A stretch of DNA of 64,000 bases from Candidatus Heimdallarchaeota archaeon. Lineage in GTDB: Archaea; Asgardarchaeota; Heimdallarchaeia; JABLTI01. The translations under genes were made by a program, and so were the position numbers. Positions 1,508-5,451 of this stretch are shown piece by piece (positions within the stretch are counted from its first letter, which is position 1; every line of letters begins with the position of its first letter). Below the pieces are notes generated by a model. It did no database searches. It was not told the DNA's origin and saw nothing but the letters and a program-made list of their open reading frames with translations. The stretch is taken from NCBI GenBank assembly GCA_019056785.1, contig DXJV01000073.1:39957-103956 (forward strand), written 5' to 3'.

Positions 1508-1623
1508 CCCCCGTCCTTTTCTCTAAAAAACAAGGATGAAGAATAGAGTGCATAAAAACACAAAAAAGATAGCTTCAAAAAATTTTATTAACTGGCTGTC
1601 AATTGCTTGATGTGCGCTTTACA

Positions 1624-1736
1624 GCCGGGATGGTCTAGTGGTAGAATTCGGGACTGTGGAATTCGCGTGAGCGTTTCTTCCTGCTCCCGAAAGCAGATAT
1701 CCTGAGGTCAGGGTTCGATTCCCTGTCCCGGCACCA
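1624..1736 (+). tRNA. tRNA-His(GTG) with 39-nt intron at canonical 37/38 position (1660-1698), encoded CCA
   Basis: Acceptor stem GCCGGGA/TCCCGGC, anticodon GTG at 1656-1658, T-loop TTCGATT. BHB motif with central helix CTGT/GCAG and bulges GGA and ATA. Confidence 0.93.
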
Positions 1737-1944: not shown

Positions 1945-3468
1945 ATGACTTATACAATTACTGGTTCTGGAATGACGATTGATGACGTCGTCAGAGTAGC
2001 GCGACATGGCGAGAAAGTGGAATTACACAAAGATGCTATTGAACGCATGAAGAAATGCCGTGCAATGCTTGAGAAAAAGATCGATGCACATGAAATTATG
2101 TATGGAGTAAACACCGGTATAGGTGAATTCTCAGAAGTGGTGCTCACAGATGAGCAGGTCAAACAATTCCAAAAATACCTCATCTACAATCATGCTGCAG
2201 GGATCGGTAAACCAGCACCTATCGAACATGTTCGAGGCGCGATTTTGGGACGACTTAATGTCCTCGCCCACGGAAACTCGGGCAATCGTCCTGTGATTGC
2301 TGAAACATTTGTCGAAATGCTCAATAAAGGCGTTACCCCAGAAGTCTGTCGTAAAGGTTCTGTCGGCGCCTGTGGCGACCTTGCCCCAATGTCACAAATC
2401 GCCTTGTTGTTAATGGGCGAAGGACGAGCTTTCTATGAAGGAGAGCTTCTCGAAGGCGCAGAAGCGATGGACCGCGCAGGTATCAAAATACCCGGGCTAA
2501 AGGCTAGAGATGGTCTAGCAGCAATCAATGGTTCAAACTTTTTAACAGCAATGAGCGCTCTGTGGCTCTATGATGCAAAGCGTTTTCTCAAACAAGCAGA
2601 AATCGCCGCAGCAATGTCCTTAGAAGCACTCCTTGCAAACATGAAACCCTATACTCCACTCTTACATGAGGCCCGCGGGTTTCCTGGAGCCATACGCACA
2701 GCAAAAACCATCCATAAATTGGTGAAAGGCGGCGACTTGTTTGAAGGGCGTCTAAAAGTGAAAGTACAGGACGCATATTCCATGCGGTCCACACCACAAG
2801 TCATCGGTGCAGCGCATGATGCTTTAGCATGGGCACAAAAACAGGTGGAAATCGAATTGAACGGTGTCGGTGATAACCCTGTTTTCTTCCCTGATAAAAA
2901 CCTTCAGCTCTCCGGCGCCAACTTTCAAGGCTCACCTGTTTCTTTGCCGATGGATATGGCAGGCGCAGCAATAACAATGGTCTGTGTGATGTCAGAACGA
3001 CGAATGAATAGATTAAACCACCCTGCCTTAAGCGTCGGATTACCACCATTCCTCACAAAAGGCGCAGGTATGATGTCTGGTTTGATGCTAAGCCAATACA
3101 CAGCAGATATGCAAATCGTGGAAATGCGCATCCTATCCATGCCGGCAAGTATCCAGTCAATACCTGCCGCAGCTGACCAAGAAGATTTTGTCAGTATGGG
3201 AATGAACACGGCATTAAAGAATGATCAGATTCTGGATAATGCTTATGGTGTGTTGGGCATCGAGTTTATGGCTGCTGCACAAGCACTTGACTTTAGAGAA
3301 CACAAGCCAGGAAAAGGAGTTGCAAAAGCAAAAGAAGTTATCAGAAAACATGTCAAGTTCTTAGACGAGGACCGACCATTATTCGACGACCATAATCGAA
3401 TGAAAGAATTAGTGAAATCGTGCGAAATCCTTGAAGAAGTAGAAAAAGAAATCGGAAGTCTAGGGTAA
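1945..3468 (+). CDS. MIO-family aromatic amino acid ammonia-lyase/aminomutase (HAL/PAL/TAL family), substrate uncertain
   Basis: YGVNTGIG, GSVGACGDLAP (Ala-Cys-Gly), VQDAYSMRS, GANFQG, QEDFVSMG. Confidence 0.88.
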   Translation: MTYTITGSGMTIDDVVRVARHGEKVELHKDAIERMKKCRAMLEKKIDAHEIMYGVNTGIGEFSEVVLTDEQVKQFQKYLIYNHAAGIGKPAPIEHVRGAILGRLNVLAHGNSGNRPVIAETFVEMLNKGVTPEVCRKGSVGACGDLAPMSQIALLLMGEGRAFYEGELLEGAEAMDRAGIKIPGLKARDGLAAINGSNFLTAMSALWLYDAKRFLKQAEIAAAMSLEALLANMKPYTPLLHEARGFPGAIRTAKTIHKLVKGGDLFEGRLKVKVQDAYSMRSTPQVIGAAHDALAWAQKQVEIELNGVGDNPVFFPDKNLQLSGANFQGSPVSLPMDMAGAAITMVCVMSERRMNRLNHPALSVGLPPFLTKGAGMMSGLMLSQYTADMQIVEMRILSMPASIQSIPAAADQEDFVSMGMNTALKNDQILDNAYGVLGIEFMAAAQALDFREHKPGKGVAKAKEVIRKHVKFLDEDRPLFDDHNRMKELVKSCEILEEVEKEIGSLG

Positions 3469-3948: not shown

Positions 3949-5451
3949 ATGGCTGAAAAAGAACAGCAAAAAACTATAACCATTGGTCGTCCCGCAGGCT
4001 TTCGGGACTTTTATCCGGAAAAATACGCAAAAGTCCAATTTATTCTCGAAACAATGAGGCGCATTTCCAAAGAGTTTGGGTATGTGGAATACGTCACTCC
4101 TTCTGTTGAGCTCCAAGCACTTTATGAATTGAAATCTGGTGAAGGGCTTGTCGGAGAAACTTTCAAAGTACAGAGCCGGAGTAAACAAAAACTGGTGCTC
4201 ATCCCAGAACTAACCCCCAGTCTCACTCGATTGTTGGCGGAAAGGCAACAAAACTATACAAAACCAATACGTTGGTTCTCCATACCAAAATGCTTTCGTG
4301 ATGAGACCCTGCAACGAGGGCGTGTGAAAGAGTTCTGGCAATATAATATTGACTTACTGGGAGTCGAAGACATTTATGCGGATGCTGAAATAATCACTAT
4401 CCTAATCAGAATTATTACAGCTTGTGGATTGACAAAGGATCAGTTTGTTGTGCGCGTTAATGACCGGCAGTTTATGCAAGAAGCATTGGAATTGCTAGGG
4501 GTGAAGAATTTCCTTGAGACAATCCGTGTCTTTGACCGAAAAGGAAAGTTATTCCAAGAGCAACTCGAGAAAGAACTACGAAAAGAGTTCTCAAAAGAAG
4601 AAGCAGCAAAAGTTGCTTTGAAAATCCGGCAAGTAAAACTAAATAAGAAATATTCACTCGAGGAGCTTCCTAGCTCACCACTCGTACAAAAACTGTTGGA
4701 AACAGCAAAGCAACTAGAACGAACAGCATTTCTCACTGCACTGCAAACTCTTGGCGTAACAGAAGCACAAGCGGAAACGCTTTATGCTCTTTCAGAAATA
4801 CGCGACACCCCCACAAAATTCATCGCGCGAGTGGAAAAACTCATGCCTAACAAGGATGTGAAAGCCCTTCTGGAACCTTTAGCAACCCTTGCAAAATTGC
4901 TTGGTGATTTTGGCGTGCTTGACTTTGTTGAATATGATGGAAGCTTGGCACGAGGGCTGGATTATTACACTGGTATTATCTTCGAAGCATGGAGCAAAGA
5001 TAGCATCCTGCCAAGAGCCATAGCCGGTGGGGGGCGCTATGCAGACCTCGTAGCAACGCTAGGGGGGCAGCCTCTTCCAGGGACAGGTTTTGGTTTTGGT
5101 GAAACGGTTCTTTTGGAGCTACTGGAGGAATTTAACATTCCCACCCCAAAACCAACAACAGCGGATGTATACATTGCTCCAATAAAATTAGCAGATGTAA
5201 AGCCAGCAATAAGCTTGTCAAACAAGCTGCGGGGGAAGGGAATAAAAACCATCCTGAATCCGTTCAATTGGCGCATTAAACGCCATTTCGAAAATGCTGA
5301 AAGTCATGGAATAGAATGGATGATAATTGTTGGTGAAAAAGACCTGGCACAGCAGTCTGTAACACTCCGAAATATCGTCACAGGCAAACAGGAAATCATC
5401 CCACTCACAAGCATTGTGAAAACAGTGGCAAAGTGTCTTAAAAATAATTGA
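3949..5451 (+). CDS. hisS: Histidine--tRNA ligase
   Basis: GFRDFYP, PELTPSL, motif 2 FRDETLQRGRVKEF, ARGLDYYTG, GGGRY, C-terminal anticodon-binding domain. Confidence 0.96.
   Translation: MAEKEQQKTITIGRPAGFRDFYPEKYAKVQFILETMRRISKEFGYVEYVTPSVELQALYELKSGEGLVGETFKVQSRSKQKLVLIPELTPSLTRLLAERQQNYTKPIRWFSIPKCFRDETLQRGRVKEFWQYNIDLLGVEDIYADAEIITILIRIITACGLTKDQFVVRVNDRQFMQEALELLGVKNFLETIRVFDRKGKLFQEQLEKELRKEFSKEEAAKVALKIRQVKLNKKYSLEELPSSPLVQKLLETAKQLERTAFLTALQTLGVTEAQAETLYALSEIRDTPTKFIARVEKLMPNKDVKALLEPLATLAKLLGDFGVLDFVEYDGSLARGLDYYTGIIFEAWSKDSILPRAIAGGGRYADLVATLGGQPLPGTGFGFGETVLLELLEEFNIPTPKPTTADVYIAPIKLADVKPAISLSNKLRGKGIKTILNPFNWRIKRHFENAESHGIEWMIIVGEKDLAQQSVTLRNIVTGKQEIIPLTSIVKTVAKCLKNN

Follow-up and report, generated by a model that had tools for sequence, protein, structure and literature searches.

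Charging of tRNAHis without G-1 has been shown experimentally in Caulobacter crescentus, Acanthamoeba castellanii and Trypanosoma brucei (PMC3064791, PMC3245924, PMC3561963, PMC4338351); the archaeal pair that we compare with these systems here is known from its sequence. In the alphaproteobacterial clade of Caulobacter the tRNA has A73 and no encoded G-1, no Thg1 is present, and the tRNA co-varies with a lineage of histidyl-tRNA synthetase (HisRS) that carries additional peptide insertions (PMC3064791, PMC3245924). The Caulobacter HisRS prefers G1:U72; in place of a Gly-Gly pocket it has Asp-Asp (PMC4357726). A. castellanii and T. brucei likewise have tRNAHis without G-1 and no Thg1, together with a Watson–Crick G1:C72 pair (PMC3561963, PMC4338351); in T. 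brucei the discriminator is U73 and the HisRS keeps Gly-Gly. In canonical archaeal and bacterial tRNAHis, G-1:C73 is encoded and RNase P cuts at -1, and a 2023 review of identity elements gives '-1, C73' for Archaea (PMC9976931). The eukaryotic cytosolic system combines A73, a gene without G-1 and Thg1, and according to reviews A73 first arose early in eukaryotic evolution (PMC3245924, PMC9976931).

The contacts made with G-1 are known from the Thermus thermophilus HisRS complex. They comprise the Gly72′-Gly73′ pocket, Arg7 and two arginines of motif 2, Arg115 and Arg122, with a motif-2 arginine holding the G-1 phosphate and G1, while the insertion domain clamps nucleotides 72–76, on the 3′ side of the acceptor stem (PMC4357726).

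We have analysed a stretch of 64,000 nucleotides (the window) from the genome of a Candidatus Heimdallarchaeota archaeon, an assembly of 2.87 Mb in 102 contigs that is 82.5% complete. A sequence-only reading of the window had described a tRNAHis gene with A73 and no encoded G-1, had called it eukaryote-like, and had proposed either a Thg1 activity or a G-1-independent histidine identity.

The tRNAHis gene

The Rfam model RF00005 matches the forward strand of the window at 1624–1733 with a score of 48.9 bits (model positions 1–71), and the gene reads a|GCCGGGA...TCCCGGC-A-CCA. The 5′ exon (1624–1659, + strand; tRNA positions 1–37) contains the acceptor strand GCCGGGA, the D arm and the anticodon GTG (1656–1658; GUG at positions 34–36), which lies in the loop CTGTGG|A. 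It is followed by a 39-nt bulge–helix–bulge intron (1660–1698), placed at the canonical 37/38 site from the Rfam alignment and the fold, and by the 3′ exon (1699–1733; positions 38–73), which includes the T arm and the TCCCGGC acceptor strand and ends with the discriminator at 1733. A CCA end is encoded in the genome at 1734–1736. Both of the marks of a canonical prokaryotic tRNAHis are missing, since position -1 (1623) is read from the sequence as A rather than G and position 73 (1733) is A rather than C. Upstream, on the same strand, an A/T-rich TATA-like box, TTTTATTAA, at 1583–1591 would place the start of transcription about 10 nt before +1 of the tRNA.

The intron appears as a 42-nt insert in the Rfam alignment. 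An unconstrained minimum-free-energy fold of 1649–1704 yields a bulge–helix–bulge in which the anticodon stem is stacked on a central helix of 4 bp (CUGU/GCAG), with bulges GG|A(A) and AU|A; as modelled, the splice motif is a slightly relaxed form of the bulge–helix–bulge. ARAGORN did not call the gene even with its intron option, because of the 39-nt intron at 37/38. After removal of the intron the tRNA has 71 nt plus CCA and folds as a cloverleaf with a short variable loop and with GUG in a 7-nt anticodon loop. It is thus a tRNAHis(GUG), and in these respects it resembles canonical tRNAHis. Its sole flaw is a C12·A23 mismatch in the D stem (1635 and 1645), where the closest relative (G009) has U12–A23. 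Compensatory changes in 14 of the 22 stem pairs across nine relatives support the cloverleaf by covariation.

Contigs from public metagenome runs of four studies show 0 differences from the window over 1560–1800, three of them spanning both 1623 and 1733, and we note that one of the matching contigs may be the source of the window's own assembly. Together with the A73 genes of related genomes, described below, these exact matches make a base-call error at 1733 unlikely, which removes one of the objections that the sequence-only reading had raised against itself. The absence of an encoded G-1 and the presence of A73, as it had described them, are borne out by the Rfam match, the sequence and the contigs, and the gene is confirmed as a genuine tRNAHis that lacks both an encoded G-1 and C73.

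Search for a second tRNAHis gene

The same reading had recognized that a canonical G-1:C73 tRNAHis elsewhere in the genome would count against its proposal. We searched the genome with a covariance model of tRNAHis built in this analysis (R1). The window gene scores 87.3 bits, the next match being a tRNAGly at 52 bits, and no second tRNAHis was found by R1 in the 82.5%-complete genome. A pattern scan of the genome for an 8-bp G-1:C73 acceptor and T arm with a GTG loop gave nothing credible. One pattern candidate, on contig C18, was rejected as having no tRNA fold. Genome-wide, ARAGORN reports 16 tRNA genes and Rfam reports 27, and the standard tools clearly under-detect the tRNA complement of this genome. 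We observe that many of its tRNAs have long or non-canonical introns and that most have an encoded CCA. The RNA component of RNase P is present.

The two closed genomes of family f2 (G016 and G026) have the A73 gene as the only tRNAHis identified. The lower-scoring R1 matches examined in these genomes, three of the four in G016 and one in G026, are tRNAGln and tRNAGly; the fourth match in G016 contains an intron. A second tRNAHis(GTG) copy was observed in G008, a genome of the same genus as the window's, at G008:C94:20300-20402, and has two broken acceptor-stem pairs. This damaged copy lies 3.2 kb upstream of the HisRS gene (type I; see below), and the intact copy is on a different contig.

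Distribution of A73 and of the base at position -1

We ran R1 on the class Heimdallarchaeia, 83 species genomes in all, and parsed the best gene with a GTG anticodon in each. We label families with numbers: f1 is the family of the window's genome; f2 is Heimdallarchaeaceae and includes both closed Ca. Heimdallarchaeum genomes (aukensis and endolithica); f3, f4, f6 and f7 belong to the same class; f12 lies outside it. The discriminator is A in every parsed gene of five families, 49 of 49 in f1, f2, f4 and f6 and 12 of 12 in f12, and none of these 61 genomes, which are related and hence non-independent samples, yielded a C73 gene. At position -1 the 11 genes of f1 have A (seven), T (three) or C (one), and the 29 genes of f2 have T (22), A (five), C (one) or G (one); all of the genes in both families encode CCA. 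The seven genes of f4 have A (four) or T (three) at -1 and two of them encode CCA, while the two genes of f6 both have A and an encoded CCA. All of the f12 genes have T at -1, and their GCCGGGA/TCCCGGC acceptor is identical to that of the window gene. Over the 61 genes the base at -1 is A in 18, T in 40, C in two and G in one. The f12 genes are 152–154 nt long and apparently contain three introns, one following position 7, one in the D loop and one at 37/38.

The canonical G-1:C73 form is found in all 17 genes of f3, none of which encodes CCA, and in the one gene from a single genome of f7, which does. Outside the class, every parsed gene of f8, f9, f20, f22, f24, f25 and f31 has G-1:C73. The canonical form is thus kept by two sister families and by the majority of the remaining Asgard lineages. 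A73 without G-1 also occurs in three single genomes, G128 (f17), G131 (f19) and G280 (f21). These counts leave out f5, one genome of f7 (G051), parts of f4, and f13, f14, f16, f27, f32 and f33, which gave no parsable tRNAHis.

The tabulation of positions -1 and 73 across Asgard genomes that the sequence-only reading had suggested therefore separates five families with A73 (61 of 61 genes) from a majority of lineages with G-1:C73. A73 without G-1 is fixed in the five families but is not the archaeal norm; the reading's concern that A73 might be common in archaeal tRNAHis proves justified for several Asgard lineages and unjustified for Archaea as a whole. Within the Asgard archaea A73 has had four or more origins.

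Identity, phylogeny and genomic setting of the HisRS

The presumed partner of the tRNA is a HisRS of 500 residues (P0001) encoded at 3949–5451 on the + strand, 2.2 kb downstream of the tRNAHis gene and on the same strand; it is the sole HisRS of the genome. P0001 matches TIGR00442 with 310 bits (cut-off 286.75), as well as PF13393 and PF03129, and has the catalytic core and the C-terminal anticodon-binding domain of a class IIa HisRS. Analysis of clade and motifs assigns it to a group of proteins of about 500 residues and 38–63% identity that we term type I. Type I enzymes were found in 10 of 11 genomes of f1, 30 of 31 of f2, 10 of 12 of f4, three of three of f6 and 17 of 19 of f12, and in none of the other approximately 300 Asgard genomes searched. 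A73 thus coincides perfectly at the family level with the type I clade.

In a maximum-likelihood tree of HisRS the 21 type I sequences included form one clade (98/95 support), the sister of which is the Loki-type HisRS of f20, an enzyme that serves a C73 tRNA. Mapping A73 on this tree needs three changes, including one on the branch from which type I arises. A73 is not strictly dependent on a type I enzyme, as G128, G131 and G280 have HisRS of other types. In G128 the genes for tRNAHis and HisRS are neighbours in divergent orientation, and the pocket loop of that HisRS carries an 8-residue insertion.

The two genes are on a shared contig, 0.3–9 kb apart, in most f1 genomes. In every f12 genome examined the type I HisRS gene follows the tRNAHis gene after about 65 nt, and the distance between the two in the closed f2 genomes is about 135 kb. 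The window also contains two genes for histidine ammonia-lyase on the + strand. One, at 80–1507, encodes a histidine ammonia-lyase-like protein with an internal rubredoxin-like insert (NF045768 at residues 177–225), and the second, at 1945–3468, lies between the tRNAHis and HisRS genes. The tRNAHis gene is thus flanked by two histidine ammonia-lyase paralogues, with HisRS next, in an unusual cluster of histidine catabolism, tRNAHis and HisRS.

The HisRS of f3 is of a different kind. It has about 440 residues and the eukaryotic signatures LRYDLSVP and QCDAD (FRDGPIKKGRYREFxQCDAD), and its best relatives among solved structures are HisRS of Elizabethkingia (6nhi) and the human cytosolic enzyme (4g84). 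Genomes G047, G017 and G025 show that f3 combines this human-type HisRS with a G-1:C73 tRNAHis and no Thg1. Included in f3 is B3_Heim, which we take to be of the LC_3/Hodarchaeales group.

Changes at the G-1 contacts and in the insertion domain

We aligned 33 type I sequences with canonical enzymes, anchoring the alignment on LxLRPE and motif 2 and taking T. thermophilus numbering from the tetrapeptides given in PMC4357726 and from KGGR of 1wu7. The equivalent of Gly72 is a glycine in none of the 33 type I enzymes (S, K, E, N or Q instead), and that of Gly73 is a glycine in 11. The Gly-Gly pair is replaced by DD, DE, EN, SK and others, Heimdallarchaeum having KDDR and thus the same Asp-Asp pair as Caulobacter. 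The arginine equivalent to Arg115 is lost in all 33 and is Thr in 31, whereas the equivalent of Arg122 is basic throughout (K in 29, R in four). Arg7 has a basic equivalent in eight of the 33, compared with K or R in all 11 of the C73-type enzymes aligned. Motif 2 is invariant in type I and reads R-D-E-T-x-Q-R/K-G-R-V-K/R; the sister clade has R-Y-E-(R/A/Q)-P-Q-x-G-R-x-R.

Canonical enzymes, too, differ among themselves at the Arg115 site (E, A, Q, N), and the T. brucei enzyme keeps Gly-Gly despite its independence of G-1. Judged from the alignment, pocket residues are a weak predictor of G-1 dependence in either direction. With the single pocket glycine in 11 of 33 sequences and the basic equivalent of Arg122, type I enzymes may retain some binding of a -1 nucleotide. 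The sequence signals of type I are suggestive, but not decisive, for independence of G-1.

The insertion domain of type I has about 56 more residues than that of the sister clade, in three blocks (P0001 residues 228–237, 257–287 and 294–304). An AlphaFold (AF2) model of P0001 has a mean pLDDT of 85.5 and a pTM of 0.81. In this model residues 188–320 form a confident bundle of nine helices, and the remainder has the standard HisRS fold. A Foldseek search with the model gives Thermoplasma acidophilum HisRS (1wu7) as the closest structure, with a TM score of 0.90 (normalized by target), followed by the T. cruzi and T. brucei enzymes. The closest eukaryotic structures to P0001 are those of the T. 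brucei and T. cruzi enzymes (3hri and 3hrk), with E values of about 1e-52 to 1e-54. We note from comparisons with P0001 and the f20 HisRS that trypanosomatid HisRS is the nearest eukaryotic relative of the branch containing the Thermoplasma, Loki and type I enzymes, and is much nearer to it than human HisRS.

Search for Thg1

The search for Thg1/TLP that the sequence-only reading had proposed was made with PF04446 and PF14413. No match to PF04446 (Thg1) was obtained in the window's 82.5%-complete genome, in the class as a whole (83 genomes), in the 19 genomes of f12, or in G128, G131 or G280. The same search was positive for 16 Asgard genomes out of 400 and for the Methanosarcina acetivorans control. 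PF14413, for which the window's genome alone was searched, gave only noise. Of the features of a eukaryote-type system, this genome therefore has A73 and a gene without G-1, and a Thg1 gene was not found. In G309 (f29) we observed a tRNAHis with C73 and T at -1 and a Thg1 homologue in the genome, which is the classical templated route of G-1 addition of some archaea.

Comparison with described systems

The window's pair shares with that of Caulobacter the A73 tRNA without an encoded G-1, the lack of a detected Thg1, the co-variation of the tRNA with a distinct HisRS lineage and the replacement of the Gly-Gly pocket. It differs in being archaeal, in having G1:C72 rather than G1:U72 and in its enzyme, which belongs to the Thermoplasma/Loki-type branch and has its main insertion in the insertion domain (the Caulobacter enzyme being compared by its description). 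The Watson–Crick G1:C72 pair, the tRNA without G-1 and the lack of Thg1 are common to the window's system and to those of A. castellanii and T. brucei. In contrast to the window's system, however, T. brucei has U73 and an intact Gly-Gly, and the trypanosomatid HisRS chains have 456 residues, with no enlarged insertion domain, against 500 in P0001. With the eukaryotic cytosolic system the window gene shares A73, the lack of an encoded G-1 and an acceptor that starts GCC, but no Thg1 was detected in the window's genome and the partner HisRS is not of the human type. The description 'eukaryote-like' is in this respect misleading, and all the more so as the family with the human-type HisRS, f3, keeps G-1:C73, as do f7 and f20. 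Of the features of the G-1-independent pairs that form class 2 of Rao and Jackman (2015), those that can be read from sequence are present: a tRNA gene without G-1 in a genome with no Thg1 detected, a divergent HisRS that co-varies with it, and the loss of G-1-binding residues, which is a partial predictor.

Interpretation

In our view, the HisRS and tRNAHis of the window probably form a G-1-independent pair of the kind described in Caulobacter, Acanthamoeba and Trypanosoma. The tRNA would be transcribed with a short leader, and RNase P would cut at +1, since no pair forms between A-1 and A73 that would lengthen the acceptor stem. The splicing endonuclease would excise the 39-nt bulge–helix–bulge intron, the CCA being already encoded, and we infer that the mature tRNA would begin at G1, with an acceptor stem of 7 bp, A73 and no G-1. 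This tRNA would then be charged by the type I HisRS encoded downstream, a member of a lineage that appears to have been freed of the need for G-1, its pocket filled or unconstrained and its motif-2 arginine changed to threonine. Specificity would rest on the GUG anticodon and on features of the acceptor end such as A73, and the enlarged insertion domain presumably supplies new contacts to this end. We infer the G-1-independent charging, and the elements that would replace G-1, from sequence comparison and the predicted structure. As the same G-1-less state of the tRNA is found in every family with a type I HisRS, the data suggest a rewired recognition rule rather than the eukaryotic way of adding G-1. 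Of the two possibilities raised by the sequence-only reading, a Thg1 activity receives no support from the searches with PF04446 and PF14413. A G-1-independent identity gains the support of three indirect lines, namely the lack of conservation at -1, which fits a discarded leader nucleotide, the co-variation of A73 with the HisRS clade, and the loss of residues that contact G-1.

Other explanations were considered. The HisRS might still read G-1 if an enzyme other than Thg1/TLP added this nucleotide opposite A73 after transcription. The eukaryotic gene pattern of A73 with a non-encoded G-1 (PMC3245924) is exactly that of the window gene, and the conserved basic residue at the Arg122 site and the one pocket glycine of a third of the type I enzymes (11/33) would also fit this view. 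The first pocket glycine and the Arg115 equivalent, however, are each lost in 33 of 33, and the switch to another HisRS clade goes together with that in the tRNA, which would not be needed had the G-1 rule been preserved. PF04446 is positive elsewhere in the phylum but finds nothing in the class, in f12 or in the other A73 genomes, and the noise obtained with PF14413 in the window's genome also argues against G-1 addition. We know of no enzyme family besides Thg1/TLP that adds G-1; the lack of a known family does not prove that the activity is absent, but we consider such an addition unlikely.

It is also conceivable that the encoded non-G base at -1 is left on by RNase P or another nuclease, which would give an unpaired eighth nucleotide at the 5′ end of the kind that Aeropyrum pernix tolerates. 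The A. pernix HisRS accepts G-1, A-1 and C-1 (PMC9976931), and an encoded G-1 is retained opposite A73 in Caenorhabditis elegans (PMC4338351). In the A73 genes, however, the -1 base varies as a discarded leader base would, no -1:73 pair is available to shift the cleavage by RNase P, and the pocket residues of type I have been lost; we regard retention of the base as very improbable. Slighter still is the chance that the A73 gene represents a secondary copy, or one in decay, and that a working G-1:C73 tRNAHis is missing from the assembly or hidden by introns. The incompleteness of the genome and its mere 27 Rfam tRNA genes could be taken in this sense, as could the C12·A23 mismatch and the damaged second copy in G008. 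Such a reading is opposed by the intact cloverleaf, the bulge–helix–bulge intron and the CCA end of the window gene, by the failure of the pattern scan to find a credible G-1:C73 gene, and by the uniform A73, with no C73, of all 61 parsed genomes of five families, the two closed genomes included.

Implications

Full-text literature on tRNAHis or histidyl-tRNA synthetase and Asgard archaea yielded nothing on the G-1-less state. The kind of system is already known; the archaeal instance, which has a HisRS clade to itself and solves the structural problem differently, is the first that we could find. G-1 is a near-universal mark of tRNAHis, and here A73 without an encoded G-1 is seen in five families within the archaeal group that is nearest to eukaryotes. 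A link with eukaryotes is tempered by the retention of G-1:C73 in the family with the human-type HisRS and by the lack of Thg1 in the A73 lineages. It may be imagined that Asgard archaea lost G-1 repeatedly, in the type I clade and independently in at least three further lineages, and that the A73 found universally in eukaryotic cytosolic tRNAHis descends from such an A73, G-1-less archaeal ancestor, but we hold this to be quite doubtful. If true, the step in which Thg1 adds G-1 opposite A73 without a template would have been re-acquired later and would not have caused the change from C73 to A73. The G-1-independent pair proposed here would bring to four the known cases in which the histidine identity rule has been rewired, with none earlier that we could find in Archaea, and the type I HisRS and its tRNAHis would constitute a natural and possibly orthogonal pair.
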